Part shown: in pieces, positions 196-63,430 of the stretch
Numbering within the stretch: position 1 is the first letter of the stretch
How the letters are laid out: each line of letters opens with the position of its first letter
From: Patescibacteria group bacterium
GTDB taxonomy: Bacteria; Patescibacteriota; Patescibacteriia; 2-12-FULL-60-25
NCBI GenBank assembly: GCA_029004215.1
Contig: JAQULH010000001.1
Span: 11,947-75,946 of the forward strand
DNA length: 64,000 nucleotides
Direction of reading: 5' to 3'
The notes under the pieces: model-generated
Seen by the model: only the letters and a program-made list of their open reading frames with translations
Database searches by the model: none
What the model was told of the DNA's origin: nothing
Made by a program: the position numbers and the translations under genes

Positions 196-226
196 GTTCA
201 GCGCGTACATTCTCAGGAGGCGTGTC

Positions 227-553
227 ATGTCAGAGGAAAACAAATACCCAAGAGCCGTTGGCACGAGTGCCGTCGTGACTGAAAAGCAATGGAACCAGGC
301 AGCACCTTTCGGGCATTGCCCAGCTTGCGGAAGCGTCGGGATCGAAGAGCTGAATATCCCCGGAGATCCGGAGATCTGCTTCTACTGTCCTGATGAAGGC
401 TGCAAGACCATACAGAACGGTCGAAGCGAGCCAGCCCGCACGAAGTGGAACAACGAGAAAACCGAAGAGCTCTTGGAAAAAGAAGCGCAAGGGGAAACCT
501 GGAACGTGATTCACTTTCCGGGCCAGGATGTCTCTGATATCTGCCCTGACTGA
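227..553 (+). CDS. small Cys-rich (zinc-ribbon-like) hypothetical protein
   Basis: ATG 227 is preceded by AGGAGG at 215-220. Contains HCPAC...CFYCPDEGC cysteine motifs. This start is preferred over the 107 start of the ORF track, which overlaps the upstream ORF. Confidence 0.6.
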   Translation: MSEENKYPRAVGTSAVVTEKQWNQAAPFGHCPACGSVGIEELNIPGDPEICFYCPDEGCKTIQNGRSEPARTKWNNEKTEELLEKEAQGETWNVIHFPGQDVSDICPD

Positions 554-596
554 GCCCAGCTCACCCATCGTTCCTCTCAATCTTCTTCCGTCAATT

Positions 597-624
597 CCGT
601 AGGGTTCGTCCTGCGGTTTTTTTT
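597..624 (+). terminator. intrinsic terminator
   Basis: Hairpin CCGTAGGG-TTCG-TCCTGCGG (597-616) followed by T8 (617-624). Confidence 0.6.
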
Positions 625-1270
625 ATTTTTTGACGCATTCGTACGAGACAAATAGCGGTCCGACTGCTTTTTTCTCATATGAGCAGTATTTTTCGATGCT
701 TCTTTCAAACTCTTCTTCTTTGTGGAAATATACTTCCGTCTTTACGCCAATTCCGGATGCTAAAACTACCTCGCCTCTGATATAGCCAGTTCTTTTTTCA
801 TCAAGAGAGTTCGCTGGGTCGCTCATCATCATTTTTTCTGTCTTATCATTAAAATCAATAATAATCAGCTTGCCGCCTAATTTAATTTTCTTGAAACAGG
901 TTTCAATCGCTTGATCCAAATCAGCCACTGTATGCAATACCATTGAACAAATGCCTAAATCAAATGATTCGTCAGGTACAGGCAGATCATTGGGCAAACT
1001 CCCGTGCTGTAAAGTGATATTTGGATGCGAGGATGTGCGGTGGATGTATTCAAAAAAGTCATCGGCAATATCCACCCCGTAATATTCATGACTTGTCTGC
1101 AGATATTTTAAAATTGTTCCCCAACCACAGCCAATATCCAGAATTTTGATTTTAGGAGGGAGGCCAAAGAGTATTTGCTGGAGATGCGGTTCAAGATATT
1201 TAACCCTATAGAAATCTTTACCGGACTCATAATTCCTTATCCAAGCCTGAACGTATTCATGGTCGTACAT
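623..1270 (-). CDS. class I SAM-dependent methyltransferase
   Basis: 215-aa ORF with motif I ILDIGCGWGT and a typical downstream acidic/hydrophobic pattern. Confidence 0.85.
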   Translation of the reverse strand: MYDHEYVQAWIRNYESGKDFYRVKYLEPHLQQILFGLPPKIKILDIGCGWGTILKYLQTSHEYYGVDIADDFFEYIHRTSSHPNITLQHGSLPNDLPVPDESFDLGICSMVLHTVADLDQAIETCFKKIKLGGKLIIIDFNDKTEKMMMSDPANSLDEKRTGYIRGEVVLASGIGVKTEVYFHKEEEFERSIEKYCSYEKKAVGPLFVSYECVKK

Positions 1271-1293
1271 AGTCTTTCTTGAACGTTGGGGGT

Positions 1294-1833
1294 TTATTTT
1301 TTTAATACCTTATTAAGTTCTTCTGAATTTTTAAAAAATAGTATTTTTGATTTTGTTTTATGCCCTTCTTTAATAAACTCTCTTATTGTATGCCCTGTTA
1401 TGCCCCCGCTTCCTTCTAGGACATATATATTTTTTGACATCCCACTCATTATTGTAACTTCGTACATCGTACCTACCTTCCCGCTGATAACTATTGCCAT
1501 GTCAACCTTTGAGCACATGTCTAAAGACCTTAGATAATTATCAATGACTGACAATTTTTTACTAAAATATTTTTTTTGAAAGATGATGTCTGTATATTCT
1601 GACAAATCAGCGTCATGAAATCGGGAATGATCTGTCATGGACCTGCCGGTGGCATACGAGATTACTTTTCCGCCTGCTTTGATCGCTGACAGAGCCACAA
1701 TATGAGGGTAGCCGTTTGTGCCGCCGGTTACTATGGTATGTTTATTTATAGCGATTAGTCTACCGATTTCTTTAGCCTTTTTAATAATTTGAGGATTATC
1801 GGTTTTAGTTGTTCCAATAATAGCAATTTTCAT
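1294..1833 (-). CDS. TIGR00725/LOG-like Rossmann-fold protein
   Basis: MKIAIIGTT...IVTGGTNGYPHIVALSAIKAGGKVISYATG resembles the LOG/SLOG (TIGR00725) family. The start could instead be the upstream ATG at 1851. Confidence 0.6.
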   Translation of the reverse strand: MKIAIIGTTKTDNPQIIKKAKEIGRLIAINKHTIVTGGTNGYPHIVALSAIKAGGKVISYATGRSMTDHSRFHDADLSEYTDIIFQKKYFSKKLSVIDNYLRSLDMCSKVDMAIVISGKVGTMYEVTIMSGMSKNIYVLEGSGGITGHTIREFIKEGHKTKSKILFFKNSEELNKVLKK

Positions 1834-1922
1834 ATATGCACATCTTGCCATTTAGCTTAAAAAATGTATAGAATGGATCAGGTGCGAAGCGGCGTGAGCC
1901 TCACTGGTTTAAGTGAGGTTTT

Positions 1923-3374: not shown

Positions 3375-3436
3375 TAATTTTGTAAAAATAAAATAACAAA
3401 ATGTCAGATGTTAAACTCCGTGAGACGAAAATAATT

Positions 3437-3465
3437 GTAGAGACGTTACATTACAACGTTCCTAC
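3437..3465. repeat. degenerate copy of the GTAGAGACG hairpin terminator family
   Basis: GTAGAGACGTTACATTACAACGTTCCTAC flanked by AAAATAATT / AATTATTTT, directly after the comEC stop. Confidence 0.6.
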
Positions 3466-4054
3466 AATTATTTTGTTCGCTGTCATTAACATCATAAATT
3501 GACCATGGACGCTAAACGCCGCACGCTGTAAGTGAGGCTTCACAGCTTCGCACCTCGAAAGCAACAGACTCGGAACGCAAGATTGATCGCACAGCGCGCC
3601 AGTATCCGGCAGGACCAATGAGCTAAACGGGCATTGGCCTCTGCCGCTAGTCGGTTCGGCAACTGATTGGCAGACGATGCATTTATAAAGTGCGTTTTAC
3701 ATACATCAAAGATGGGTCCTGGAGGGGATTTTTCATCAAAGATGCCATTTCGTCATGTAGCTAATGACTACAAGGCACAAATGGAGGGGCGTATCAGTCG
3801 AGCTAAAAAAGCTAAAGCCGATGTCCAAAATCGGCCTGAGAAAAAATCGTAGTTACAATTGGCAGCGCGATATTCATAAACACGCTGTTGACCATGTTCC
3901 AGCCTTTGATTGGCGACAGGAGCGGTCATGTGATTACGGTTCATTGGGTCAGGACTTTTGCCAAAAGTCCGGAGGCGGGCCGTTCCGAGTTTGTTGCCCA
4001 AGACTGCTTTGGTCTCCTCTACGACGCGTATTGGAGGGAACCGGAGGCAGTCTC

Positions 4055-6286
4055 ATGGAAAAGAAGCTTGGCACATCGAAAATCAGGTTTTTCACGTTGT
4101 TCTGCATGCTGCTGATTGTTGCAAGTTGCGGCAACCTTGGACCGGTCGAGCCGAACCAAGGGGGAGGTATTGCGCCCGTAAGCCACAACTCCAACAGTTC
4201 GACCGGCACGCAGGGTTGCACTGTATATGCCGTGCGCTACCCGACCACTGTTGAGGATTTCCAAAAGTTGCTTTACGGCAATCGAGGATTTCTCACCGAG
4301 TACAATGGCATCAAGCACCTGGGCCACGACATCATTTATGCCGAGGGCACAGCCATCCACCCCATTGCCTGCGGCAAAATCGTTTATTACGGGCCTGCCA
4401 GCGGATATGGGACTCTGGTCATTGTGATCGAGCACAAGCTGGCAGCGGCGCTGACCGTCACGAATGGTGACGGCACGACAACAGCCGTCACGTCTTTTCT
4501 TACTATCTACGGTCATCAGCGTAAGACCCAGCAAATGAACGGCGGCAACGCTCTGACCTGGCAGGTCGGGGATTATGTTGGCCCGGATGATGTCATTAGC
4601 TACGTGCAGAACGATGTTGCAAACGGCGACGGGCCGGAACATCTGCATTTGGGAGTCAGATTGCAGAGCACAGCTGAAGCCAAGGTTGTTGATCCTTCGG
4701 CTTGGTTCCGCGGCAATGACACGGCAGATGGGAAGTACAAGAAGTACTACACCGATCCCGCGACTTTTATTCCCAATTTGCAGACAGCGCTCGAGGGTTC
4801 TTCGGGCGTTGATCCGGAGCAGGCTGCGACAGCCATGCATTACCCGGTTGGGACTTTGCTCCAAGAATACGGAGGAGGTTACTGGTTGGTCGTGGGCGAG
4901 AACAGTATCTTGAATGCGACTGGCTATGACCATCTGCCTAAGAGTTGTGCAGTCAACATGCCTCTCCAGGCATTGAACTGCTACACCCAAGTCCAATTCG
5001 ATCCGTTCTCACTCTACCTGGACGCCAAGGTCATCAAGTTCGACGGCGAACCGCAGGTCTACCAACTTTTTCCTGGCAATGGCTTTGCGACCACGGGTTA
5101 CCGGACATTCCTGTCATACGACTCTTTTCTGTCGTGGGGTTACAAGGATGGCGACATCGTGTCCTATCCGTTCACGCAGAAGGCGTCAACGCTCAACGCT
5201 TTGCAAGACAAAGGTATGGTCGGTTTCATGCCGGGAGCCTTGGTCAAAGGTAAAGGCCAGAGCGAGGTGGCAGTTGCTGACCAGAACGGCCAACGTCGTC
5301 CCATCTTCAACTGGGACGTGTTCCTGGCTTTGGGCTATCAGCAGCAGTGCATCTATGAAATCGAACCAACCACGCTTGATGTTGTGGCCGGCTCGCGTTC
5401 TGATCAAGTCATAACCTTGTCCGAGACAGGACAGTGTGGCGCCCAAGGGCAAGGAGGATCATCCGGTATAGGCGGGTCTGGAGGATCTGTTGGGTCGGGT
5501 GGTATGACGAATGAAGGAGGATCTTCTGGTTCGACTGGGCAAGGAGGAAGCCAGCCGAGTGTCGGCGGAGCAAGCGGGTCATCTGCAACAGGCGGATCCG
5601 GAGGGCTGGATTATTTGTGCGCACCGGGCTCAACAGATTCATGTGCCTGCGGTGGCGGAGTCCTTGGCAGCCAAGTTTGTCGTGACGACGGCCAGGCTTA
5701 CGACCCTTGTATATGTCCTGATGCAGGAAGCGGCGGTTTTGGCGGATCGCAAGGGCAAGGAGGCTCAACCGGAGTCGGAGGAACGACGAGCATCGGCGGG
5801 TCATCAGGTCAGGGAGGATCAATCAACGTCGGTGGTTCAAGCGGCAGCGGAGGAACGTCCAACAACTCCAGCCTTTGCCAAACCAAAGGTGTGGCCAACA
5901 AGACGGTGATCATTATCAATGCGCCGGTCGGCCAATCCAATGTCATCTCCGTCTTCGGCTGGATTGATTATCCGGGTTGGAGCGGAGTGCCGGACGTGTC
6001 TTGGAGCGGTTGGGCTTGGGGAGCGACAGGCGTGGACCAACTCGTCTTCCAAAAAGGCGATGTTTACCAAGGTACCAAGTACATCTTCGCGCCAGGAGTC
6101 TCATCCAATAATGGCCAGCCGCAAGATGCCTGGTATTGCGAACAGACAGGCTGCCCAATCGGGACATTTGTGGTCTGCAATGGCCTACAAGAAGCCTGCC
6201 GCGTGCAGGATGGCGTACTGTCCGGCAAAGCCTCGTACAACGCTAACCAAGCAGGCTGGCAAAATATCCAGTGCGTATTACCTTAG
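4055..6286 (+). CDS. M23 family metallopeptidase lipoprotein with Gly/Ser-rich linkers and Cys-rich C-terminal domains
   Basis: GGAGG at 4043-4047, then ATG 4055. Lipobox LLIVASC. M23 motifs HLGHD and EHLHLG. Two GGS-rich linkers (about 5440-5600 and 5720-5870) flank a 6-Cys module. The 3764 start of the ORF track is rejected. Confidence 0.8.
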   Translation: MEKKLGTSKIRFFTLFCMLLIVASCGNLGPVEPNQGGGIAPVSHNSNSSTGTQGCTVYAVRYPTTVEDFQKLLYGNRGFLTEYNGIKHLGHDIIYAEGTAIHPIACGKIVYYGPASGYGTLVIVIEHKLAAALTVTNGDGTTTAVTSFLTIYGHQRKTQQMNGGNALTWQVGDYVGPDDVISYVQNDVANGDGPEHLHLGVRLQSTAEAKVVDPSAWFRGNDTADGKYKKYYTDPATFIPNLQTALEGSSGVDPEQAATAMHYPVGTLLQEYGGGYWLVVGENSILNATGYDHLPKSCAVNMPLQALNCYTQVQFDPFSLYLDAKVIKFDGEPQVYQLFPGNGFATTGYRTFLSYDSFLSWGYKDGDIVSYPFTQKASTLNALQDKGMVGFMPGALVKGKGQSEVAVADQNGQRRPIFNWDVFLALGYQQQCIYEIEPTTLDVVAGSRSDQVITLSETGQCGAQGQGGSSGIGGSGGSVGSGGMTNEGGSSGSTGQGGSQPSVGGASGSSATGGSGGLDYLCAPGSTDSCACGGGVLGSQVCRDDGQAYDPCICPDAGSGGFGGSQGQGGSTGVGGTTSIGGSSGQGGSINVGGSSGSGGTSNNSSLCQTKGVANKTVIIINAPVGQSNVISVFGWIDYPGWSGVPDVSWSGWAWGATGVDQLVFQKGDVYQGTKYIFAPGVSSNNGQPQDAWYCEQTGCPIGTFVVCNGLQEACRVQDGVLSGKASYNANQAGWQNIQCVLP

Positions 6287-6297
6287 CCTACTCACTC

Positions 6298-6324
6298 GCC
6301 CTGCATTCTTGCGGGGCCTTTTTA
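6298..6324 (+). terminator. intrinsic terminator
   Basis: GCCCTGC-ATTCTT-GCGGGGC followed by CTTTTTAT. Confidence 0.55.
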
Positions 6325-6383
6325 TCCCAGGCACTTATCCCCATGACGGTTTTTCGTCCGTTTGGTAAGGTATGTGTCATATA

Positions 6384-6398
6384 GAACAATAATAGAAC
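6384..6398. promoter_or_regulatory. GAAC-N7-GAAC direct repeat (candidate LexA/SOS-type operator) upstream of recA
   Basis: GAACAATAATAGAAC lies 13-27 nt upstream of the recA ATG. It matches the direct-repeat SOS box form known from Alphaproteobacteria. Confidence 0.35.
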
Positions 6399-6410
6399 AC
6401 ATAACATATT

Positions 6411-22005: not shown

Positions 22006-22017
22006 CATAAAATAAAC

Positions 22018-22058
22018 AAAAAAGTAGAGACGTTGCATTGCACCGTCTCTACTTTTTT
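22018..22058. terminator. GTAGAGACG-family hairpin terminator (bidirectional form)
   Basis: A6-GTAGAGACGTTGCATTGCACCGTCTCTAC-T6, directly after rpoC. Confidence 0.75.
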
Positions 22059-22102
22059 AGAATCTCGACAAGCTGGCTATCAAAAGGTAACATCTTGGCG
22101 AT

Positions 22103-22822
22103 ATGTCAGGCCACAGCAAATGGAGCAAAGTTAAGCAGTTCAAGGGCGCGATCGATGCCAAACGCTCGGCCAACTTTACCAAGTTGGCGCGTGAGATAGA
22201 AATCGCTGTCCGCGAAAAAGGCCCTGACCCAGGCATGAATTTTCGTTTGCGCATGGCCATAGACCGGGCGCGTTCCGGCAACATGCCCAAAGACAGCATT
22301 GAACGAGCTATCACGCGCGGCTCAGGATCTGACGACGGGGTTCAGGTCGAATCTTTACGATATGAAGCATATGGTCCGGGCGGTTCAGGATTGATTATTG
22401 AGTGCCTGACTGACAGCCATAACCGTACGGCTAATGACGTTAAGCATATTCTGTCCAAGAACGGCGGCACTTTGGCTGCATTGGGTTCAGTGGCTTTTCA
22501 GTTTGACCATAAAGGCGTAGTCAGGGCCGCTACCATCTCAAAAGACAAAAGAGATGAAGTTGAATTGGCACTGATTGATGCGGGAGCCGAAGATATCCGT
22601 GACGAAGAAGGGGAGATGACCATAATCAGCGCGCCGGCAGATTTATCCAAAGTCAGCGAGGCTGCTTCCAAGACAGGCTTAACAGTCTCATCAGCTGAAT
22701 TTGAGTGGTTACCCAAGATAATGGTTTCACTTGATCCGGCAGCCGGTGAGGCAATTGCCAAATTGATTGAAATTCTGGAAGAGAATGATGATGTGCAAAA
22801 TGTCTTTACCAATGCCAACTAA
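22103..22822 (+). CDS. yebC: YebC/PmpR family transcriptional regulator
   Basis: MSGHSKWSKVKQFKG N-terminus and full-length family similarity. Confidence 0.9.
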   Translation: MSGHSKWSKVKQFKGAIDAKRSANFTKLAREIEIAVREKGPDPGMNFRLRMAIDRARSGNMPKDSIERAITRGSGSDDGVQVESLRYEAYGPGGSGLIIECLTDSHNRTANDVKHILSKNGGTLAALGSVAFQFDHKGVVRAATISKDKRDEVELALIDAGAEDIRDEEGEMTIISAPADLSKVSEAASKTGLTVSSAEFEWLPKIMVSLDPAAGEAIAKLIEILEENDDVQNVFTNAN

Positions 22823-27200: not shown

Positions 27201-27210
27201 AACCCCAAAT

Positions 27211-27251: not shown

Positions 27252-27253
27252 AT

Positions 27254-27865: not shown

Positions 27866-27891
27866 ATCAAACAAATATAACCTAAGCCCAT

Positions 27892-34121: not shown

Positions 34122-34146
34122 ACAAATTGTGTTATAATTCCACCGT

Positions 34147-54066: not shown

Positions 54067-54107
54067 ATTCGGCCATTGCAGTAAACGTTTCATTAGGAGG
54101 TCGAGTC

Positions 54108-54464
54108 ATGGGAAACCCGGCGAGATTCTTTCTGATCATCCCGAGCAAGAGCTATCCGACGCAATCGGAGATGGAAGCCCTCAGGCCCGGCGATTCATTG
54201 CGTTTCACAGTCGTGGAAGGCGACCTGAAGCATGCTGCATCCTCGGAGAAGCTGGATGTCGAACTGACTCCCGTTCTCCACCCGGGTGGTTATCGCGTCG
54301 ATGAAGATCCAGTGGGTGTCTGGCATATAGAGGGTACCTTCAAGATCAACGGCGAGGTCTTCACTGGTCAGTGCCTGTATGAGGTCGATCCCGAAGCGTG
54401 TAAGCAGTTCATGAAGATACCTTGTTATGGTCACAGCCGCGGTTTGGTTCAGATCAACCCGTAG
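54108..54464 (+). CDS. hypothetical protein (118 aa)
   Basis: AGGAGG at 54095-54100, then ATG 54108. No motif recognised. Confidence 0.6.
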   Translation: MGNPARFFLIIPSKSYPTQSEMEALRPGDSLRFTVVEGDLKHAASSEKLDVELTPVLHPGGYRVDEDPVGVWHIEGTFKINGEVFTGQCLYEVDPEACKQFMKIPCYGHSRGLVQINP

Positions 54465-54479
54465 CAGGCAGACTCCTCG

Positions 54480-54533
54480 CAGAGCTCAAGTTGGCACCCC
54501 TCGCCGGCTTGAGCTCTTGTTGTATATATTGAG
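54480..54533 (+). terminator. 54-bp terminator-like repeat, copy 1
   Basis: 10-bp stem AGAGCTCAAG / CTTGAGCTCT, then TGTTGTATATATT. Identical 54/54 to 55129-55182. Confidence 0.7.
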
Positions 54534-54557
54534 CTAAAATTTAAGACCTATCGGCGG

Positions 54558-54586
54558 TTGACAAAACCGCTGATTTGTAGTATATT
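54558..54586 (+). promoter_or_regulatory. consensus sigma70 promoter
   Basis: TTGACA (54558-54563), 17 nt, TATATT (54581-54586). Confidence 0.6.
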
Positions 54587-54650
54587 GCTCAATTCTCTAA
54601 AGCATGGCGTGGTGTCGTGCCGAAGGGGGTACACCTCAAGGAGGTCTAAA

Positions 54651-55112
54651 ATGGACATTCGTAGTCATCAAGTGAAGAAGATTCTGAGGGTCGGCGTTGT
54701 GGTGGATGGACGAGTCGTAGCTGAGAAGCTGTACACTCCCGGCTCCGAGGTCACCATTGGGAGCACGCCGGACTGCGACTTCACGCTGCAGGATATTCTG
54801 TTCGTGAAACACGTACTCTTCACCTACGGGCCTGACGAGAGCACCTTGGCCATGCTACCCGGCATGACGTACAAGCTGTTCATCACGGATCAGGGTCTCA
54901 AGGAAGGCAAAGTATCCAGGTCCGAGGTCACGAAGGAGTTCAAGGTTGTGCCGTACTTCCGTGGCAGAGTCACAGTGGGCAGTGCCTCGTTTCTCCTCCA
55001 GTTCGTGGACAGGCCCGAGCGGCCCGAGCCGCCCAAGAAACGCACCTTGCGAGGTTTCATCCGAAGGATCCTGTTCGGGCCTGACGCTGACTACCTCCCC
55101 ACGTGCCTGTAG
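54651..55112 (+). CDS. hypothetical protein with a degenerate FHA-like segment (153 aa)
   Basis: AGGAGG at 54639-54644, then ATG 54651. VTIGSTPDCDFTL...VKHVLF resembles the FHA core but lacks the canonical Arg and Ser. Confidence 0.6.
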   Translation: MDIRSHQVKKILRVGVVVDGRVVAEKLYTPGSEVTIGSTPDCDFTLQDILFVKHVLFTYGPDESTLAMLPGMTYKLFITDQGLKEGKVSRSEVTKEFKVVPYFRGRVTVGSASFLLQFVDRPERPEPPKKRTLRGFIRRILFGPDADYLPTCL

Positions 55113-55128
55113 GCCCCAGGCCGCCCCT

Positions 55129-55182
55129 CAGAGCTCAAGTTGGCACCCCTCGCCGGCTTGAGCTCTTGTTGTATATATTGAG
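55129..55182 (+). terminator. 54-bp terminator-like repeat, copy 2
   Basis: Identical to 54480-54533. Starts 17 nt after the stop at 55112. Confidence 0.7.
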
Positions 55183-55226: not shown

Positions 55227-55253
55227 TTAGCAGACTCAACTCAAGACTGCTAA
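55227..55253. promoter_or_regulatory. CIRCE (HrcA operator) in the groES leader
   Basis: TTAGCAGAC-N9-GACTGCTAA. Arms match the consensus 7/9 and 8/9. Confidence 0.65.
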
Positions 55254-57223: not shown

Positions 57224-57346
57224 CGGTACGAATTAACAATTAACAATGAATAATTAACAAATTGAGGAAGATCTTCCCTTTTTTGCTTATTTGGGGTATC
57301 ATTGAATTATTAATTGTTAATTATAAATTATTAATTAAATTGAAGT

Positions 57347-57697
57347 ATGCCAGAAGAAGCAAGCGCACCCGTCAAAATGCATTTTGACGAGAAAGATGTC
57401 AAGGAAAATTCAATTATTGCCGCCTTGAGCTATATCGGTATTCTCTGTTTAATTCCTCTCTTGGCCAAGAAGGATTCCAAGTTTGCCCAAGAGCATGGCA
57501 AGCAGGGTTTGGTGCTTTTGATCGCCTGGGTCGTAGTTGTGGTTGTTGGCTGGATCCCGATTCTGGGCTGGATCGTTGGTTTCTTTGGGAGCATCCTATT
57601 ATTGGTCCTCTCTCTGGTAGGCTTTATCAAATGCCTCATGGGCGAGTTCTGGGAGGTTCCAGTCTTGGGCCAATATCGCAATAAGTTCAATTTGTAA
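57347..57697 (+). CDS. DUF4870-like small membrane protein
   Basis: ENSIIAALSYIGILCLIPLL...KFAQEHGKQGLVL pattern with 2-3 TM segments. Confidence 0.55.
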   Translation: MPEEASAPVKMHFDEKDVKENSIIAALSYIGILCLIPLLAKKDSKFAQEHGKQGLVLLIAWVVVVVVGWIPILGWIVGFFGSILLLVLSLVGFIKCLMGEFWEVPVLGQYRNKFNL

Positions 57698-57711
57698 TTT
57701 TAGTTGGTTAT

Positions 57712-57740
57712 GTAGAGACGCCCAGCTGGGGCGTCTCTTT
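57712..57740 (+). terminator. GTAGAGACG-family hairpin terminator (variant loop)
   Basis: GTAGAGACGCCC-AGCTG-GGGCGTCTCT followed by TTGTATATT. Confidence 0.6.
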
Positions 57741-57759
57741 GTATATTAGCACCCGGGGT

Positions 57760-57788
57760 TTGACAACATAGCTGTTTTCTGATATGTT
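57760..57788 (+). promoter_or_regulatory. sigma70 promoter of the 57953 cassette
   Basis: TTGACA (57760-57765), 17 nt, TATGTT (57783-57788). Confidence 0.55.
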
Positions 57789-57952
57789 CATCTTTCGGAA
57801 ATTTTGGATTTAAGCTTATAATTAAGTTAAGTTTGAACATTACAAACACCCGGAAGAAACGATTATTCGTCTCATTTTGAGCCGGCTAACCGTTTCTCCC
57901 GGGTTATGATCACAAGCTTCTCGAGCAGTTCCTCCATGAAAGGAGATGCATC

Positions 57953-58933
57953 ATGCATCGAAAGATTTTCGCGCTGTTGGCAGTACTCGTCGCTGTGGTG
58001 ATGGTCGCGGGCGTTTCGTCCGGACAGAATAAGCCTGGCTTCTCTGCGCCTTCGTCCAAGTCGGCTACGAGCGCTCCGGCTCCGGTTGCAAGTGCACCCG
58101 CAAGCAACCTCACGCCCATGCCGGGCTCGACTGCCTGGACTGACGGTCTTTACCACGCCGCGTGGGGGAACATCGTCAGTAAGGGTGCGGTTGCCATCAG
58201 CAACGTCGAGGTCGTAGACGGAAAATTGCTTTTCGTAGCACGGATTTCGACGGACGACAGGTTCCATGTTGTGCTCGGTGACAAAATGCACAACAAAGGA
58301 TACTTCGGCATCTCGGAACTCAAAGCCTCGGGATCGGGCGTCATCTCTTTCAGCGGATTGGACGGGCAAGAACTGTCTGAATATGAAGACGTCGAGAACT
58401 TCGAGGTGAAGGGCAGACATTCCGTGGGCCGTCGCGACTCTGGAATGATCACGGGCGTTGGCCACGGCATCAGCAGACCCGTACCAACGATGCCTCCTCT
58501 ACCTTCGCGTATGTCCCATGGCATTCAGGTACGCGACTACATCTTGGCCAACGGCGAGCCCCTTCTGGTTCACTGCGATGATGACAGCTGCCGCGTCTGG
58601 TGGGGCGAAGCGGAAACCCGCCCGTTCGCCAGGATCTCCGATCTCGCTTTTGAGAACGGCAAGGTGAGCTACACCGCGCGCAACGCCGACAAGTCCTTGC
58701 AGGTGTTCTGGGGCGGGGCAGAGAGTCCCAAGTACAAGGAGGTCGACCCGTACGAGCTCGTAGATGGCAAGCCCATGTACTGCGGTACCGGGTTGGACGG
58801 CAAGAGCTACATCGGTGAAGGCGTGACGCGTTCAGCGCCGTTCGAGGAAATCGTGGAATACGGCGTCGAAGCGGGCAAGTCCCTCTACATCGCGCGCCGC
58901 GCCGTCGTTCCCGTCCCCGCCAAGAAGTTGTGA
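57953..58933 (+). CDS. secreted or anchored repeat protein (WG-like beta-repeats), 326 aa
   Basis: AGGAG at 57941-57945, then ATG 57953. Signal or TM segment IFALLAVLVAVVMVAGVSSG. Recurring G-K-x-x-Y/F ... W-G-G modules. The family name is tentative. Confidence 0.6.
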   Translation: MHRKIFALLAVLVAVVMVAGVSSGQNKPGFSAPSSKSATSAPAPVASAPASNLTPMPGSTAWTDGLYHAAWGNIVSKGAVAISNVEVVDGKLLFVARISTDDRFHVVLGDKMHNKGYFGISELKASGSGVISFSGLDGQELSEYEDVENFEVKGRHSVGRRDSGMITGVGHGISRPVPTMPPLPSRMSHGIQVRDYILANGEPLLVHCDDDSCRVWWGEAETRPFARISDLAFENGKVSYTARNADKSLQVFWGGAESPKYKEVDPYELVDGKPMYCGTGLDGKSYIGEGVTRSAPFEEIVEYGVEAGKSLYIARRAVVPVPAKKL

Positions 58934-58944
58934 TCCCACCTCCT

Positions 58945-59001
58945 AAGAACCGGCCAGAGACCCTTCGCGTAAGCGAAGGCAACTCCTCTGGGCCGGTTCT
59001 T
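58945..59001 (+). terminator. nested hairpin terminator
   Basis: Outer arms AAGAACCGGCC / GGCCGGTTCTT and inner hairpin CCTTCGC-GTAA-GCGAAGG, then CATTTTC. Confidence 0.55.
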
Positions 59002-59062
59002 CATTTTCAAAAAATTATCAATTCGTCTCGACAATCCGTCTTTCTCGCGGTAGCATGTGGCC

Positions 59063-60193
59063 ATGCTGGATGATTTGAAACAGCGTTTAGTTGCCCTCCG
59101 CGCCAAGCTGGATGAAGCCTGGCAAGTTTTGGATTTGGCTGCACGCAAGGAGGAAATAGGCGCTTTGGAGTATGAAGTTTCTTTGCCGGATTTTTGGAAC
59201 CAACCGGACAAAGCCAAACGCGAAATGCAAAAGATGTCTGACTTAAAAAAGGAATATGACCAATGGTCAGGCTTGCGCGCCGAGGTGCTTGAGTTGGATG
59301 AACTGGTAGAGCTTTCAGCCAAGGAAAAAGACCAGACATTTGAGTCAGAGGCAACTAAGAAATTGGAAGAGTTAGAAAAAAAGTTTAGTCAGATCGAGTT
59401 TGCCATAATGTTTTCAGGCGAGCATGACGCTTCCAATGCAGTCGTATCTATCCATGCGGGTGCCGGCGGTACTGATGCGCAGGATTGGGCCGAGATGTTG
59501 CAGCGCATGTATTTTCGTTACGCTGAAAAGAAAGATTGGAAAGTCAGGCTGGTTGATGAAAGCAGGGGAACAGAAGCCGGGATAAAATCCTGCACGTTTT
59601 TTGTGGAAGGCAGGCAGGCTTACGGCCATCTTAAAGGTGAAGCTGGGGTGCATCGCCTGGTCCGCCTTTCGCCCTTTAACGCCGACTCGCTTCGCCAAAC
59701 ATCTTTTGCGCTGGTCGAAGTTCTGCCCGAACTGGAAGATGACGCTGAGATAGAAATAAAGCCCGATGATTTGCGGATCGATACTTTTATGAGCGGCGGC
59801 AAGGGCGGTCAATCGGTTAATACGACTTACTCCGCGGTCAGGATTGTCCACTTACCGACTAAGATTACGGTCACCTGCCAGAATGAAAGATCGCAGGCCC
59901 AGAACCGTGAGACAGCCATGAAGATTTTGAAATCAAAGTTAGCCTTGCTCAAAGAAGAGGCTGTGCAGAAGGAGAAGCAAGAGCTACGTGGCGAGTTCCA
60001 TAGCGCCGAGTGGGGGAGCCAAATCAGGTCTTACGTACTCCAACCTTATCGGATGGTCAAAGATCTGCGGACTGGATATGAAACTTCTGACACGGAGGGC
60101 GTTTTGGATGGCGATTTGGAAGCTTTTGTTGAAGCTGAGTTAAAACAAGGAGTCAAACCCGGGCAGGTCAGGGAAGATCTGAATAAGGAGTAG
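59063..60193 (+). CDS. prfB: peptide chain release factor 2 (no programmed frameshift)
   Basis: SPF and GGQ motifs in a single continuous ORF. TAGCAT (59051-59056) lies 6 nt before the ATG. Confidence 0.93.
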   Translation: MLDDLKQRLVALRAKLDEAWQVLDLAARKEEIGALEYEVSLPDFWNQPDKAKREMQKMSDLKKEYDQWSGLRAEVLELDELVELSAKEKDQTFESEATKKLEELEKKFSQIEFAIMFSGEHDASNAVVSIHAGAGGTDAQDWAEMLQRMYFRYAEKKDWKVRLVDESRGTEAGIKSCTFFVEGRQAYGHLKGEAGVHRLVRLSPFNADSLRQTSFALVEVLPELEDDAEIEIKPDDLRIDTFMSGGKGGQSVNTTYSAVRIVHLPTKITVTCQNERSQAQNRETAMKILKSKLALLKEEAVQKEKQELRGEFHSAEWGSQIRSYVLQPYRMVKDLRTGYETSDTEGVLDGDLEAFVEAELKQGVKPGQVREDLNKE

Positions 60194-60215
60194 GCTTGAA
60201 TTTGGGTTAAGGGGG

Positions 60216-60244
60216 TTGACAAAATCCCTTTTTTCGTATATAGA
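60216..60244 (+). promoter_or_regulatory. sigma70 promoter of the 60277 cassette
   Basis: GGGGGTTGACAAAAT with TTGACA at 60216-60221. The -10 is TATATA (60237-60242) or TATAGA (60239-60244). Confidence 0.5.
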
Positions 60245-60276
60245 TAAATCCAGCTCGTTGGAGAAAGGGAAAGCAA

Positions 60277-60648
60277 ATGACTATAACCAATAGGCCTCCG
60301 CCCAAAGGCCAGGGTCTCGGACCTGTGACGCGTACCAAACCCACCCATTACCCCTGTGTGGTCCTCTGGGTCTTTCAGCCGCCCGATGGCCCCAAAACCG
60401 TCGGGTTCAATGAGCTGAGAAACGAAGCCGCCTTTGTCTCGCTAATCGAAGCCATGGACTACGAAGTCCGCCAGACGGGCGGAGAACTGCTGACCTTCAA
60501 GGTCGTTCATCCCGCACCTATCAGCCAAACAGCTTTTGCTGTGCGTTTCTGCAAGGTTGACGGAGAACGGGGATCGGACGAACTGTTCTGCGGCACATGT
60601 GGTGGCAAGACCACACTTGTCGGCTTTAAGGACAACGCCAAGAAGTAG
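60277..60648 (+). CDS. hypothetical protein (123 aa)
   Basis: GGAGA/AGGGA purine tract at 60260-60270. C-terminal CGTCGG motif. No family recognised. Confidence 0.55.
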   Translation: MTITNRPPPKGQGLGPVTRTKPTHYPCVVLWVFQPPDGPKTVGFNELRNEAAFVSLIEAMDYEVRQTGGELLTFKVVHPAPISQTAFAVRFCKVDGERGSDELFCGTCGGKTTLVGFKDNAKK

Positions 60649-60663
60649 AAGGAGGAGAGGAAG

Positions 60664-61014
60664 ATGACGCAGAGAAAAATTTTGGTCGTGGAAGATGAAT
60701 CAGCCCTCGCGATGACCTATGTAAGGGTCTTCGAGAAGAGGCAGGCGATTGTCCTTGTGGCCTCAGACACGGACACTGCCGCGGGTTTGTTTCTGGCGAA
60801 CCAGGACATCACCGACGTGATCCTTGACGGCGAAGTGCCCGGTTCAATGACGACAACAGAGCTGGCTGCGGAGTTCAGGAAGGCATCGAATTGTCGGCTG
60901 GTGGCGGCAGTGGGAAGCCTGGAGAAGTCGTGCGAACTGGTCAGGCTGTGCGATGCATCTTGCGAGAAACCATTCGATGCAGCCACGCTTTGTGGACTAC
61001 TTGGCCTCTCTTGA
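60664..61014 (+). CDS. stand-alone response-regulator receiver (CheY-like) domain
   Basis: GGAGGAG at 60651-60657. ILVVEDE, VILDG (candidate phospho-acceptor Asp) and EKPF (Lys-Pro). Confidence 0.7.
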   Translation: MTQRKILVVEDESALAMTYVRVFEKRQAIVLVASDTDTAAGLFLANQDITDVILDGEVPGSMTTTELAAEFRKASNCRLVAAVGSLEKSCELVRLCDASCEKPFDAATLCGLLGLS

Positions 61015-61077
61015 TTGAAGATTCAATAGGGGCCTCTTTTTATTCCTTGATTTTAGATATAAGGTTATACTGACAAT

Positions 61078-61692
61078 ATGCAAATAATCAGTCTCGAAGA
61101 CCAAAAAGCGGCCGTGGAACAAGCGGTCCAGGTTTTGCGTCAAGGTGGAGTTATTGTCTTTCCAACCGAAACCTCATATGGTTTGGGTTGTGATCCGCGT
61201 AACTTAGCCGCATTAGGAAAAATCTATCGCATCAAGGAGAGGTCGACCTCAAAAGCCCTGCCTTTAGTTTCGTGTTCGATTGAACAAGTGAGGAGCATAT
61301 TTGATGTTCCTAAAGCCGTCGAAGAATTAGTTGCCAAGTATTGGCCTGGTCCGTTGACCATCCTGCTTGAACCAAAGGATATGAGCCTGCGCCATCAGAT
61401 GCCTGTCTTTAAAGACGGTTTATCAGCCATCCGTGTCTCGTCACATCCTTTTGTCCAGGCCTTGGCTTGCTCCTATAATTTCCCGATAACTGCCACCTCG
61501 GCCAACATGACTGGCATGGCAGATCCTTATTCCATGAACGACCTGCTTAAGGTGTATAAGCCTGTAGACGCCAGCAAACAGCCGGATTTGATTATCGATG
61601 GCGGTGATTTGCCATACAATCCACCTTCAACCATTGTTAAAGTTGAGTCTGGAAAGATTGAAGTCCTTAGGCAGGGGGCAATTGAGTTATGA
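61078..61692 (+). CDS. tsaC: L-threonylcarbamoyladenylate synthase (TsaC/YwlC/Sua5 family)
   Basis: VFPTETSYGLGCD and SANMTG motifs. TATACT (61066-61071) lies 6 nt before the ATG. Confidence 0.85.
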   Translation: MQIISLEDQKAAVEQAVQVLRQGGVIVFPTETSYGLGCDPRNLAALGKIYRIKERSTSKALPLVSCSIEQVRSIFDVPKAVEELVAKYWPGPLTILLEPKDMSLRHQMPVFKDGLSAIRVSSHPFVQALACSYNFPITATSANMTGMADPYSMNDLLKVYKPVDASKQPDLIIDGGDLPYNPPSTIVKVESGKIEVLRQGAIEL

Positions 61693-62510
61693 CGCCTTCA
61701 GAAATAAAAGCCGCCATGGCAAAAGTCGGTGGCACCGCCAACAAGCATCTTGGCCAACATTTTTTGATTGATAATAAGGCTTTGGAAGTTATTGTAGAAT
61801 CTGCGGAAATTAAAAAAAGAGATCGTGTATTAGAGGTTGGCCCGGGTTTGGGGGTTTTGACACGCGAGCTGATCAATCGCGGTGCAGATGTTATCGCGAT
61901 TGAAAAAGACCGACGTTTCACTGATAATCTCAATAAGATTGCTGGCCTAGAACTGCATATAGGAGATGCATCAAAAAATGATTGGGACTCAATAGTTGGC
62001 AGCAAGCCTTGGAAGTTTGTATCCAATCTGCCATATGCCATCACCTCACTGGCTTTGCGTAAAGCTTTATACGCCAAAAACCCGCCAACAGTTATTGTTG
62101 TGCTAGTACAGCGCGAAGTAGCAGAGCGTGTCTTGGCTCGTGATGGAAAGACATCACTTTTATCCTTGATGGTTGGGCTGGCTTCGACAGAAGCGGACAT
62201 TATCCGCCGCGTATTGGCTGGGGCTTTTTATCCACCACCCAAAGTTGAGTCAGCGATATTGAAAATCGTACCAACGTACAACGTACAACGTACAACATCG
62301 TGGGGGATCGAACCGGAAGAAGTGATGAAAATTGCAAAGCAAGGTTTTGCCCACCCGCGCAAGCTGCTGCAACGCAACTTGGGTATAGAAAGTGGTCAAT
62401 GGCAAGAATTATCAAAGCAAATAGGTTTTGACATAAAAACTCGGGCGGAAGACCTTAAAGTTGAGCAATGGGTGGAACTGGCTAAAACGAACAAAGGCTC
62501 CGGAGAGTGA
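61689..62510 (+). CDS. rsmA: 16S rRNA (adenine1518/1519-N6)-dimethyltransferase
   Basis: LGQHFLID, EVGPGLG and NLPY motifs. ATGA overlap with tsaC. Confidence 0.93.
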   Translation: MTPSEIKAAMAKVGGTANKHLGQHFLIDNKALEVIVESAEIKKRDRVLEVGPGLGVLTRELINRGADVIAIEKDRRFTDNLNKIAGLELHIGDASKNDWDSIVGSKPWKFVSNLPYAITSLALRKALYAKNPPTVIVVLVQREVAERVLARDGKTSLLSLMVGLASTEADIIRRVLAGAFYPPPKVESAILKIVPTYNVQRTTSWGIEPEEVMKIAKQGFAHPRKLLQRNLGIESGQWQELSKQIGFDIKTRAEDLKVEQWVELAKTNKGSGE

Positions 62511-62525
62511 ACTCGCGGAGCCTTT
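62493..62525. terminator. 10-bp perfect hairpin between converging genes
   Basis: AAAGGCTCCG (62493-62502) pairs with CGGAGCCTTT (62516-62525). The rsmA stop codon lies in the loop. Confidence 0.55.
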
Positions 62526-62548
62526 GAGTAGGTGGGAACCATCTCGCA

Positions 62549-63052
62549 TTATCGCGGGGCGGCTGAATAGGAAGGGCTAAAGGGCGATTTTCGCGGTTTG
62601 GGTAGGTCGGGCTGTCCGAGCTCAAACGTGAGCTCTACCTCGAAGAGAGGACGCCCGGCTTCTTCTGGCAGGCGGAGCCGCTCGTTGAAGTCGCAGGACT
62701 GGGGCCTCCTGTCTCTCGGCCTCGTCCTCTTTGGTTTCTTGTCAGCCTCAACTGGTCGATGCCAGGTCTTCTTGATGCTCCCATCGGGCAGGGTGATTTC
62801 GGCTGTGACGGACTTCGTTCCACTGGGCCAGAGGGCAAGGCCGGTTTCACCCATGAAGAAGAGGGTGATCCAGTCGCAGGCTTCCTTGGTTTTGCCAAAC
62901 GAGCTGACGATGAAGGTGTAGTCTTTTCCGTCCTTCTTCGTAGTGAAGTAGAACAGAACTTCCTGCAAGCTCACGCCTCTCTGGATCCTCCCTTGGGCTT
63001 CCTGCACGCTCCCGCTGCTCTGGCTCATCCTCCGAACGAATTGAGCTTTCAT
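62549..63052 (-). CDS. hypothetical protein (167 aa)
   Basis: GGAGGAG (63064-63058) lies 5 nt before ATG 63052. Basic, Pro-rich C-terminal half. No family recognised. Confidence 0.6.
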   Translation of the reverse strand: MKAQFVRRMSQSSGSVQEAQGRIQRGVSLQEVLFYFTTKKDGKDYTFIVSSFGKTKEACDWITLFFMGETGLALWPSGTKSVTAEITLPDGSIKKTWHRPVEADKKPKRTRPRDRRPQSCDFNERLRLPEEAGRPLFEVELTFELGQPDLPKPRKSPFSPSYSAAPR

Positions 63053-63064
63053 CTCATCTCCTCC

Positions 63065-63313
63065 TTACGCGGCGCGTTCCATGGCGCGGCGGGACAGGTG
63101 TCTCTCGATCTCGGGCAAGGTCTCGCGTTCGAGCTTGTCGAGTTCGACGAAGATCCTCATGATCTCCTCGTCGTGTTGCGGGTCGGCCAGAGCACTCAGG
63201 CTAGACCACTCCTCGCGCAGGTTTTGAATCTCATCCATGATCGAGTCGCGACGTTCTCGCACCTGGTCTGTGCTAAGCACGTGCAACGGGGCAATTGCGG
63301 GGACTTTGTCCAT
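63065..63313 (-). CDS. small helical hypothetical protein (82 aa)
   Basis: AAGGAG (63325-63320) lies 6 nt before ATG 63313. Charged, coiled-coil-like sequence. The 139-aa version of the ORF track would include the promoter. Confidence 0.55.
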   Translation of the reverse strand: MDKVPAIAPLHVLSTDQVRERRDSIMDEIQNLREEWSSLSALADPQHDEEIMRIFVELDKLERETLPEIERHLSRRAMERAA

Positions 63314-63401
63314 GATAGTCTCCTTGTGACGGCCTCGGGGAGGAGGCCGGATGGGCTGGGCACTGGCGCTAATGCTATGCGCCTTGTCAAAGAATTGACT
63401 A

Positions 63402-63430
63402 ACTTTAGCATAAAAATCAGATTTTGTCAA
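63402..63430 (-). promoter_or_regulatory. sigma70 promoter of the 63313-62549 operon
   Basis: On the minus strand: GGGGGTTGACAAAAT with TTGACA (63430-63425), 17 nt, TAAAGT (63407-63402). Confidence 0.5.

Follow-up and report, generated by a model that had tools for sequence, protein, structure and literature searches.

Protein synthesis starts in two ways in the stretch of Patescibacterial DNA analysed here, 64 kb of contig JAQULH010000001.1 (hereafter the window). Conserved housekeeping genes, which form the backbone of the window, lack Shine-Dalgarno (SD) sequences, whereas eleven genes located in cassettes between the backbone operons are SD-led, ten of them strongly. The two initiation regimes are real and lineage-wide; the same split is seen in independent assemblies of about ten related Patescibacteria from different projects. 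Our preferred explanation, to which we assign a probability of about 0.55, is that an SD-less and often leaderless core coexists with endogenous, hypervariable, SD-dependent accessory modules that occupy fixed slots.

SD sequences separate cassette genes from the backbone

Backbone genes with Pfam support are comEC, recA, ftsK, rpoB, rpoC, yebC, ruvC, the MBL hydrolase gene, gyrA, clpP, the DHH phosphoesterase gene, rbfA, smc, VanW, hsp20, the gene of a giant protein of 4530 amino acids (aa), nusA, yidC, groES, groEL, prfB, tsaC and ksgA. SD strength was scored as the duplex free energy (dG) of the 18 nt before a start against the 16S tail CACCUCCUUU. The mean dG is -9.9 kcal/mol at the 11 cassette genes and -1.4 kcal/mol at 31 backbone genes (Mann-Whitney p = 3e-6). 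Ten of the 11 cassette starts have a dG of -8 kcal/mol or lower (-8.3 to -12.4), whereas no more than 2.9% of 2112 window ATGs that are not starts score this low (3.4% with upstream GC matched). Against this background the cassette starts are beyond chance (binomial p ~2e-14) even if SD sequences guided the choice of starts.

All eleven SD motifs listed in the initial annotation of this DNA were found in place. On the forward strand these are AGGAGG before the start at 227 (spacer of 6 nt), GGAGG before 4055 (7 nt), AGGAGG before 54108 (7 nt), AAGGAGG before 54651 (6 nt), AAAGGAGA before 57953 (6 nt), the weak GGAGAAAGGGAAAG before 60277 (dG -6.4) and AGAAGGAGGAGAGGAAG before 60664 (0 nt). On the reverse strand they are GAAGGAG before 12051 (7 nt), GGAGGG before 12931 (4 nt), AAGGAGGAGA before 63052 (4 nt) and AAGGAGA before 63313 (5 nt). 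The description of the backbone as SD-less is equally borne out, with 28 of the 31 genes at background and only three at a dG of -7.5 or lower, which is the background rate. Two of these three, comEC (GAGGT within a terminator hairpin) and the gene at 9799 (GAGGAG), had been recognized before as exceptions, and ksgA (GGGGG) is added here. For internal backbone genes (rpoC, groEL, yidC, the PRC gene, g51528, the Wzy-like gene, gyrA and the giant gene) the dG lies between 1.2 and -3.0, and the leadered backbone genes nusA and MBL are likewise without SD.

Syntenic loci were collected by PrfB and FtsK searches, which returned only Patescibacteria metagenome-assembled genomes (MAGs) near Uhrbacteria, Kerfeldbacteria and Magasanikbacteria. 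The closest relatives read, designated by L numbers, are L108 and L109 (GroEL 99%, PrfB 94%), L104, L085 and L105 (GroEL 93%), L110, L001, L106 and L107; the cassette protein C57953 (cassette genes are named by their start position) is a 100% match to an NCBI protein from a "Patescibacteria group bacterium" MAG. Genes of the relatives were called by an SD-blind rule, as the first ATG of non-overlapping open reading frames (ORFs). In this call SD-led genes make up 8% of the conserved ORFs as against 20-27% of the variable ORFs (Fisher p = 0.013). As a control, the same pipeline was applied to loci of Bacillota, where the SD-led share is 59-85%, and to loci of Patescibacteria outside the clade of the window, where it is 0-11%; within the clade it is 20-36%. 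The Bacillota values indicate that the pipeline picks up SD sequences where they are present.

It could be argued that the split arises from an SD-biased choice of cassette starts, from mis-set backbone starts or from chimeric assembly or binning. Cassette starts had been picked partly by their SD in the initial annotation, and the window does come from a MAG. However, we find this reading barely credible. The first-ATG rule recovers 9 of the 11 cassette starts and the same contrast in the relatives, the Bacillota control behaves as expected of a working pipeline, and the architecture recurs in the independent assemblies mentioned above. Backbone starts agree with the N-termini of orthologues, aligned from up to 12 relatives; those that were re-set (rpoB to 14547, ftsK to 7550, clpP to 27865, rbfA to 29331, prfB to 59063, the Wzy-like gene to 52525 and the giant gene to 35385) acquire no SD and leave the result unchanged. 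Junction sequences are conserved between genomes, and an independent Logan contig is 100% identical over 57694-59074, spanning both C57953 junctions.

The anti-SD sequence is intact

The 16S rRNA gene, identified by Rfam, enters the window at 63863-64000 (forward strand) and is cut by the window edge after 138 nt, its 3' end lying outside. The anti-SD sequence was read from five relatives, L002, L003, L004, L007 and L108, in which the 16S 3' end is ...GGAUCACCUCCUUU with CCUCC kept. The 16S of L108 ends in GGATCACCTCCTTT, and its first 138 nt are identical to those of the window. The presence of CCUCC, which the initial annotation had left as a question, is thus established for this clade, and with the canonical tail found in L108 the ribosome should be able to read SD sequences. 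Loss of the anti-SD sequence has been reported for some Parcubacteria (Tsurumaki et al. 2022, PMC9297842). That case belongs to the same superphylum and shares with ours a lessened dependence on SD pairing in the Candidate Phyla Radiation (CPR). However, the clade of the window differs in retaining both CCUCC and strong SD sequences on a subset of its genes.

Promoter motifs adjoin the start codons of many backbone genes

Promoter scans and reading of the upstream sequences reveal that -35/-10 pairs adjoin the start codons of first genes in backbone operons. In prfB (59028-59065, forward strand), which has no SD, the promoter TCGACA-17-TAGCAT lies 6 nt before the ATG at 59063, and 5 of 10 orthologues, as well as L108 and L110, likewise have TAnnnT at a distance of exactly 6 nt. 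The reverse-strand clpP (27863-27918) has TTGACT-17-TATATT 8 nt before the ATG at 27865, with an inverted repeat resembling CIRCE (controlling inverted repeat of chaperone expression) over the -35 box; in L105 and L107 the -10 box is 8-9 nt from the ATG. For hsp20 (34130-34149, forward strand), an extended -10 element TGTTATAAT (hexamer 34133-34138) precedes the ATG at 34147 by 8 nt, and TGnTAnAnT followed by exactly 8 nt and ATG is present in 4 of 4 genomes despite differing flanks. In ftsK (7511-7552, forward strand), GTGACA-17-TAAAAT with a TG lies 10 nt before the ATG at 7550; a -10-like hexamer (TAAAAT, or TAAGCT in L088) occupies this distance in 8 relatives, and the full TGCTAAAAT is present in 6. 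The yebC promoter (22065-22105, forward strand) is TCGACA-17-TAACAT, 9 nt from the ATG at 22103. The DHH phosphoesterase gene (28926-28975, reverse strand) has TTGACG-17-TAAGCT (-10 box 28941-28946) 12 nt before the ATG at 28928, with a predicted leader of ~5 nt and no SD; this arrangement occurs in 3 of 4 genomes (L105 and L107 as in the window), and L106 has TAATCT with a 15-nt gap. A TAAGTT box precedes the rbfA ATG at 29331 by 8 nt (29329-29345, reverse strand), a distance also conserved in orthologues. Finally, in tsaC (61066-61080, forward strand) TATACT precedes the ATG at 61078, as it does in L001, L108 and L110; the gap measures 7 nt in L108 and 6 nt in the other three sequences.

A position profile was drawn up from 127 starts, and the figures for core first genes refer to 88 conserved first-in-operon genes of the window and its relatives. 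A -10-like hexamer is located 4-12 nt from the ATG in 43% of these 88 core first genes compared with 17-24% at control offsets. Position -1 is T or C in 87% of them, weak T peaks occur at -12 and -7, and the region is AT-rich. Both the pyrimidine at -1 and the T peaks are as predicted for transcription starting at the A of the ATG. A -10 box 6-12 nt from the ATG that is kept in orthologues leads to mRNAs that would be leaderless or nearly so. The geometry is therefore suggestive, though not proof, of mRNAs that begin at the ATG or at most 5 nt before it for many first genes of the backbone. This aspect was absent from the initial annotation, and it would turn the contrast into one between leaderless or unstructured mRNAs on one side and leadered, SD-bearing mRNAs on the other.

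Internal backbone genes overlap the upstream gene or start 2-18 nt after it, which suggests that they are translated by coupling or re-initiation. In our proposal, conserved housekeeping genes would thus initiate without SD:anti-SD pairing, first genes through leaderless or very short-leader mRNAs or, in a few cases, short A/U-rich leaders, and internal genes presumably through coupling or re-initiation. An SD-stimulated +1 frameshift site is common in bacterial prfB genes. Here prfB (release factor 2; 59063-60193, forward strand) is a single uninterrupted ORF without such a site, which is consistent with native proteins being made without reliance on the anti-SD sequence.

A somewhat unlikely alternative, which leaves the cassette side unchanged, is that the backbone is not leaderless and that ribosomes bind its leadered mRNAs by a non-SD route. 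This could involve A/U-rich signals of the Bacteroidetes type, or AT-rich arrays of period 7 to which S1 or some other factor binds; AT-richness would then have produced the -10-like hexamers as a by-product. Such a route would account for internal operon genes, which also lack SD and have T at -1, and for the leadered nusA, MBL and rpoB. It also draws on the period-7 arrays, whose ends lie 7-10 nt from many SD-less starts of the window, L001 and L104. Autocorrelation at period 7 is elevated solely before conserved first genes (0.32, compared with ~0.27 for other periods and 0.235 before SD-led genes), and heptamer repeats just before starts in regions poor in ribosome-binding sites have been published (PMC4679880). 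However, prfB, clpP, yebC, DHH, ftsK and hsp20 have a -35 box and a -10 box at start-site distance (in hsp20 the -10 box is of the extended type), the distance between promoter and ATG is conserved while the sequence between them is not, and no single A-rich motif at a fixed offset emerges from the profile of 127 starts.

Period-7 tandem arrays are present in window spacers at 57231-57260, 57305-57337, 32257-32284 and 63612-63674, in L001 at 274-304, 1589-1676, 2440-2535, 5924-6009 and 7838-7863, and also in L104, L002 and L004. There are often two of them, partly complementary to each other as inverted pairs, and they end 4-10 nt before SD-less backbone starts. The repeated unit varies by spacer and genome (AATTCAT, AATTAAG, ATTCGTA, TCGTTAC, CGAATCT). 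TAACTGA direct repeats described before starts in Beggiatoaceae, Cyanobacteria and Bacteroidetes (MacGregor 2015, PMC4679880) are similar in that tandem 7-nt repeats end a few nt before starts in spacers without a canonical ribosome-binding site. They differ from the present arrays, in which the heptamer is not constant and inverted pairs are frequent.

Architecture of the cassette modules

The best sigma-70 consensus matches of the window are located in the cassette slots. Their common form is TTGACAaaa, a T-rich spacer and often TGnTAtagT. A shared extended promoter had been proposed for several cassettes; the exact 15-mer GGGGGTTGACAAAAT occurs twice (at 60211 and, on the reverse strand, at 63435), and two variants carry 2 mismatches, all in cassette slots. 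Since the cassette promoters lie 30-160 nt before the ATG, cassette mRNAs have real leaders. In the relatives an exact TTGACA-N16-18-TAnnnT is found for 4 of 35 SD-led genes and for 0 of 91 core genes; a perfect-consensus promoter is thus supportive of the class, yet it was rejected as its universal mark. Hairpins follow eight cassette genes, the one after C60664 being weak, so that the earlier statement that cassettes end in hairpins holds for most of them.

For nine of the 11 cassette proteins no matching family exists in Pfam, NCBIfam, PHROG or PADLOC, in keeping with their description as proteins without recognizable family, from which the M23 peptidase and the receiver domain have to be excepted. 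Searches of the cassette proteins against PHROGs, PADLOC and NCBIfam gave only sub-threshold noise save for the receiver domain, and a phage or defence origin of the cassettes was rejected on this ground. The "FHA-like" label given to C54651 could not be verified by a Pfam hit, and a single-sequence AlphaFold2 model reached a predicted local distance difference test (pLDDT) score of only 40.

The leftmost cassette, C227 (215-553, forward strand), consists of the SD at 215-220 and an ORF at 227-553 for a Cys-rich, zinc-ribbon-like protein of 108 aa, followed by a hairpin at 597-616; neither a family match nor a homologue in the relatives read was found. The M23-peptidase lipoprotein gene (4043-6317, forward strand; SD 4043-4047, ORF 4055-6286, terminator 6298-6317; Pfam M23) had been counted among the orphans, but it is conserved in synteny across the clade. 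Its orthologues lie between comEC and recA in L085 (77%), L093, L082, L083 and L088 (40%), with the SD kept in L085, L082 and, more weakly, L088.

Two cassette genes are located on the reverse strand left of rpoB. C12051 (10885-12065; SD 12059-12065) codes for 388 aa with a GC content at third codon positions (GC3) of 0.84 and has three hairpins downstream at 10747-10870. C12931 (12575-12941; SD 12936-12941) codes for a zinc-ribbon protein of 118 aa, and its L085 orthologue (43%) occupies the same slot with its own TTGACA promoter and a AAGGAGGA SD. A near-perfect promoter, TTGACA-17-TATTAT, was also observed at 10709-10737 (reverse strand), reading antisense into the 3' end of the 9799 helix-turn-helix gene with no ORF behind it. 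It lies beside a bidirectional hairpin of 14 bp (10747-10779) and may give rise to an antisense or small RNA.

Two units stand side by side before groES on the forward strand. The C54108 module (54005-54552) has the promoter TTGACA-18-TAAATT at 54040-54069, the SD at 54095-54100, the ORF at 54108-54464 and a hairpin at 54481-54517; in L104 its promoter and leader align (73%) and the ORF behind them is unrelated. The C54651 module (54553-55182) has the promoter TTGACA-17-TATATT at 54558-54586, the SD at 54638-54644, the ORF at 54651-55112 and a hairpin at 55130-55166. Compared with L104 and L108, identity is 82-83% for the leader and SD but only 30-31% for the protein, groES and groEL there being 98-99% identical. 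Both units end in a 59-nt direct repeat (54475-54533 and 55124-55182, 97% identical) made of a hairpin with a 15-bp stem and TGTTGTATATATTGAG; L104 and L108 have one copy each. It is possible that this repeat serves as a recombination handle for adding units.

The C57953 module (57748-59024, forward strand) comprises the promoter TTGACA-17-TATGTT at 57760-57788, a leader of ~158 nt, the SD at 57938-57946, the ORF at 57953-58933 for a secreted protein with WG-like repeats, and a hairpin at ~58945-59001. The protein is 82% identical in L104. In the L001 slot a secreted protein is 25% identical (E = 2e-4) and has a strong SD and the same TTGACAAAA...TATATT promoter ~160 nt upstream.

The two remaining modules are bicistronic. 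The first (60211-61014, forward strand) begins with the GGGGGTTGACAAAAT promoter at 60211-60225 and contains C60277 (ORF 60277-60648; weak purine-rich SD 60260-60273) and C60664, a lone receiver domain (ORF 60664-61014; SD 60647-60663). C60277 is 93% identical in L108, but L104, L001 and L110 lack it; the receiver gene occurs in all four of these and in L007 at 41-75%, with a strong SD every time. The second module (62492-63435, reverse strand) has the promoter GGGGGTTGACAAAAT...TAAAGT at 63402-63435, C63313 (ORF 63065-63313; SD 63319-63325), C63052 (ORF 62549-63052; SD 63057-63066) and a hairpin at ~62492-62526. The pair is 83% and 77% identical in L108, and its slot is taken by non-homologous SD-led genes in L104, L110 and L001.

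Composition and codon usage

The impression by eye that cassettes are GC-richer is confirmed, with a GC of 0.567 against 0.488 in the backbone and a GC3 of 0.685 against 0.533 (p = 1e-5). GC at second codon positions (GC2) is 0.439 against 0.386, and the GC of the 40 nt upstream is 0.545 against 0.389. Relative synonymous codon usage of the cassettes correlates with that of the backbone at 0.45, while rpoBC, gyrA and groEL correlate with the rest of the backbone at 0.84. SD-led genes in the relatives lie 0.06 above the local core mean in GC3 (p = 2e-4), and new insertions in L105, L104, L108 and L110 are GC3-rich and SD-led too.

In principle the SD-led genes could be the most strongly expressed ones, with promoters, SD sequences and C-ending codons all selected for efficiency and no link to accessory status. 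The cassette promoters are indeed the best sigma-70 matches of the window, and in two-fold codon boxes the cassettes prefer C over T, as rpoBC, gyrA and groEL do. However, groES, groEL, rpoB, rpoC, nusA, clpP and recA are SD-less here and in all relatives. The cassettes differ from rpoBC, gyrA and groEL in their Leu (CTG/CTC instead of TTG), Arg and Gly codons, and the codon shifts of the two sets from the backbone correlate only at 0.33. Moreover, GC2 and the leaders are GC-richer as well. On the strength of the Leu, Arg and Gly choices we reject high expression as the sole cause of the GC3 difference, and an expression effect as the explanation of the SD split appears very unlikely.

A second accessory class has the opposite character, with low GC (GC3 0.27-0.40) and no SD. 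It is represented in the window by methyltransferase and SLOG-family genes at 623-1851 (reverse strand; GC3 0.32-0.40), in L104 at 391-747 and 10971-11342, and in L085 at 183-2312 and 8106-8465. Its members are of the methyltransferase, SLOG-family, DUF559 endonuclease-like, 23S-rRNA-IVP (DUF559 and 23S-IVP in L104) and restriction-modification-like types, and they are inserted at differing spots across the relatives.

Turnover and origin of the modules

The stretch 57748-59024, i.e. promoter, leader, C57953 and hairpin, is missing in L108 as an exact promoter-to-terminator indel, with the break precisely between the DUF4870 terminator and the prfB -35 box. The C54108 unit (54005-54552) is likewise missing whole, as an exact indel, in the near-identical L108. 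Cassette content does not track backbone relatedness, as the closest genome, L108, is without C57953 and L104 has an 82% copy. L105 has a two-gene insertion between rbfA and smc with GC3 values of 0.70 and 0.73 and SD-like sites of dG -7.2 and -11.0. No target-site duplication or inverted repeats were found at the C57953 indel junction, and no integrase, transposase or tRNA anchor was found in the cassette slots, where the sole repeat is the 59-nt hairpin after the two adjacent units.

Full-depth homologue searches covered two cassette proteins. C57953 has 5 matches among 5.8 billion proteins, all in Patescibacteria-like close relatives and 40-100% identical, and a single further cluster (47% identity) matches C12051 in a set of 1.84 billion representatives.

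One of the two explanations offered in the initial annotation was recent horizontal acquisition, in which the cassettes are foreign DNA from SD-using, GC-richer donors and keep the donor's SD sequences, promoters and codons. Atypical composition and codon usage would be expected from this, as would presence and absence varying between genomes with 94-99% identical backbone proteins and unrelated ORFs occupying several slots in different relatives. However, the homologues of C57953 and C12051 are restricted to close Patescibacteria, and no donor is detectable. While some modules are patchy, at least five (M23, receiver, zinc ribbon 12931, C57953 and C54651) are kept in position with their SD in syntenic loci, and for the first four of these the same slot and SD are retained down to 25-57% identity. 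High GC3 persists in such old residents, and the signature therefore looks maintained in a clade-internal pool and not like the fading mark of an import. The relatives share the leaders and promoters even where the ORFs behind them change, and the junctions bear no integrase, tRNA or target-site-duplication marks. On these grounds recent import is poorly supported and seems to us unlikely as a general explanation, though it may apply to the four smallest cassette ORFs. The other explanation offered, an SD-dependent accessory regulon, fits better as far as the accessory set is concerned; any shared regulation would be an additional assumption.

In the explanation that we prefer, lineage-specific accessory genes would be self-contained modules in fixed inter-operon slots, each composed of a near-consensus sigma-70 promoter, a leader of 30-160 nt, a canonical SD spaced 4-7 nt from the start codon, an ORF of high GC3 and a terminal hairpin. 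We propose that cassette mRNAs, being leadered and GC-rich, need an SD, which can be read because CCUCC is intact. The modules would belong to a flexible gene pool internal to the clade and would not be foreign imports. Whole promoter-to-terminator units would be gained or lost between near-identical genomes, and ORFs would be swapped, perhaps by recombinational exchange, or diverge extremely fast behind conserved shells of promoter, leader and SD. Several members would be old residents that have retained their SD.

Several points weigh against this explanation. The window comprises 64 kb and the loci of the relatives roughly 300 kb, with no ribosomal-protein operon among them. The enrichment of -10 boxes near ATGs is modest and confounded by AT-richness around starts. 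Some backbone genes are leadered (nusA by ~65 nt, MBL by ~18 nt and rpoB by a conserved upstream region of ~440 nt), and the T at -1 of internal backbone genes is unexplained by leaderless transcription. As low-GC, SD-less insertions exist, accessory status does not equal being SD-led. C227, C54108, C63052 and C63313 rest on their SD and GC3, the last two also on one close relative. A foreign origin would equally predict the deviant codon usage and GC of the cassettes, and the lack of detectable donors is negative evidence.

A conserved candidate structured RNA near rpoB

The interval 10.8-14.1 kb had been taken as a cassette of orphan coding DNA. Our analysis revises this for 12975-14063, which is a conserved candidate non-coding RNA (ncRNA). 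No convincing hidden ORFs were found in 12932-14546 or in the other long spacers. The candidate ncRNA (12975-14098, reverse strand) would be transcribed from ~14063 to 12975, over ~1.09 kb, from a perfectly conserved consensus promoter, TTGACA-17-TATAGT, at 14070-14098, and it ends in a hairpin and a U-run. Its nucleotide identity is 75-85% in L085, L098, L084 and L097, and it is always located near rpoB. In the predicted fold, a variable middle separates a conserved 5' domain from a conserved 3' domain. Pairing holds for 94.5% of cells in the 3' domain, and 16 of its 79 pairs show compensatory changes; shuffles give 8.3 +/- 2.0 such pairs and never reach 16 in 500 trials, and slid controls give 0-3. 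In the 5' domain compensatory changes occur in 7 of 65 pairs, a count that comes from only three sequences. The ncRNA has no Rfam match even at E <= 10, and RNase P, tmRNA, SRP, 6S, OLE, GOLLD, ROOL and group I/II introns were rejected with this negative. A by-eye likeness to RNase P CR-I and CR-V was dropped, as no consistent P4 pairing was found.

Six GGAGG motifs are present in the ncRNA, ~6-fold over the background of 0.88 per kb, and three show no variation among the aligned relatives. One may speculate, and we regard this as quite unlikely, that the core proteome has abandoned SD pairing, which would persist as a translational channel of its own for the hypervariable accessory set. The cell could then switch this set up or down through the availability of the anti-SD sequence. 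The conserved and strongly promoted ncRNA would be a candidate regulator that could act as an anti-SD decoy, and the promoter-leader-SD shells and the hairpins could act as homology arms for ORF swaps. If there is such a channel, it would serve an accessory set of secreted, lipoprotein and small regulatory proteins, possibly for host interaction.

Comparison with known systems

In GeneMarkS-2 group C (Actinobacteria, Deinococcus), first genes are leaderless and the remaining genes have SD sequences (Lomsadze et al. 2018, PMC6028130). Our comparison with this group covers the window and the loci of the relatives. The likeness lies in a Pribnow box ~10 nt before many first genes (6-12 nt here), side by side with SD sequences on leadered genes and an intact anti-SD sequence. 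However, internal and leadered native genes use SD sequences in group C (PMC6028130) and do not in the window, where the SD sequences are concentrated in atypical, variable genes.

Group B, or the Bacteroidetes type, has an anti-SD sequence that is rarely used (PMC6028130, PMC3155529). The canonical 16S tail (read from the relatives), the near absence of SD sequences on native genes (28 of 31 at background) and the AT-rich, low-structure regions before starts agree with it. A shared A-rich motif at a fixed offset, a possible difference, does not emerge from our 127 starts, whose profile shows only AT-richness, the pyrimidine at -1 and the weak T peaks. The phylum is another one, and an SD-led subset tied to hypervariable slots is not described there within the literature searched.

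The GeneMarkS-2 paper also defines an "atypical gene" class (PMC6028130). Atypical or acquired gene classes and flexible genomic islets of the replacement type share with the cassettes a deviant GC3 and codon usage, fixed slots, swapped content and conserved flanks. Atypical composition and patchiness of the genomic-island kind are both observed here (C57953 and C54108 are absent from L108, and C60277 from L104, L001 and L110). The present units differ in consisting of one or two genes with their own promoter, leader, SD and hairpin, in their upward GC deviation, and in the absence of mobility genes, tRNA anchors, target duplications and an outside donor (homologues outside the clade having been sought at full depth for two proteins).

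Integron cassettes are also small, swappable single-gene units in series, and the 59-nt imperfect-palindrome repeat after two adjacent units is reminiscent of them. An integron/attC reading of this repeat was rejected, because the window has no integrase and the repeat no GTTRRRY/RYYYAAC cores, each unit has its own promoter, and the slots are scattered.

A full-text literature search on SD and leaderless translation in CPR/Patescibacteria yielded only the paper on anti-SD loss and unrelated work. We found no description of the mix seen here, in which native genes, first and internal alike, are SD-less and SD sequences are confined mainly to hypervariable modules.

Other features of the window

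The ~440 nt upstream of rpoB (14100-14546, forward strand) are 75-96% conserved in L085, L098 and L081 (e.g. GGTCTGGCCGGAGGAGACGCG), which suggests a long structured rpoB leader. The genes rplJ and rplL were not located upstream of rpoB in the clade of the window.

CIRCE-like inverted repeats are present upstream of groES (~55227-55253, forward strand) and over the clpP -35 box (~27892-27918, reverse strand), with the halves TTAGCAGACT-N9-ACTGCTAA and TTAGCACTC-N9-GACTGCTAA. Their conservation in relatives suggests HrcA-type heat-shock control that includes clpP. Just 5' of recA (6381-6404, forward strand) there is a direct repeat, ATAGAACA...ATAGAACAC; TAGAAC-N(4-6)-AGAAC before recA is kept in L093, L091 and L089 and is a candidate SOS-type operator.

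A bidirectional terminator of 46 nt, made of an A-run, a stem and a T-run, occurs in near-identical copies (96%) after rpoC (22014-22059) and between gyrA and clpP (27207-27252). A partial copy is present at 3427-3472, and a related AGAGACG stem follows the DUF4870 gene (57714-57738).

The giant gene (35385-48977, forward strand) is SD-less and starts 2 nt past the preceding gene. The protein has an N-terminal hydrophobic segment and a CBM_4_9 match near its N-terminal part, and relatives of 4278-4480 aa are encoded at the same position.

Implications

Conserved, highly expressed genes usually have the best SD sites, and the pattern of the window is the reverse of this usual bacterial rule. 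CPR genomes are almost all annotated automatically, by gene finders that assume one initiation model per genome; mixed initiation would lead to mis-called gene starts and small accessory genes in such lineages. The clade may offer a natural system for how the reduced CPR ribosome chooses between classes of mRNA. The clean promoter-to-terminator indels and the replacement of ORFs point to a modular change of gene content without mobile-element machinery. Finally, the combination of promoter, leader, SD and high GC3 could be used as a marker of fast-evolving, lineage-specific genes, and the genes so marked would be the likeliest to mediate the episymbiotic life of these bacteria, which are uncultured.

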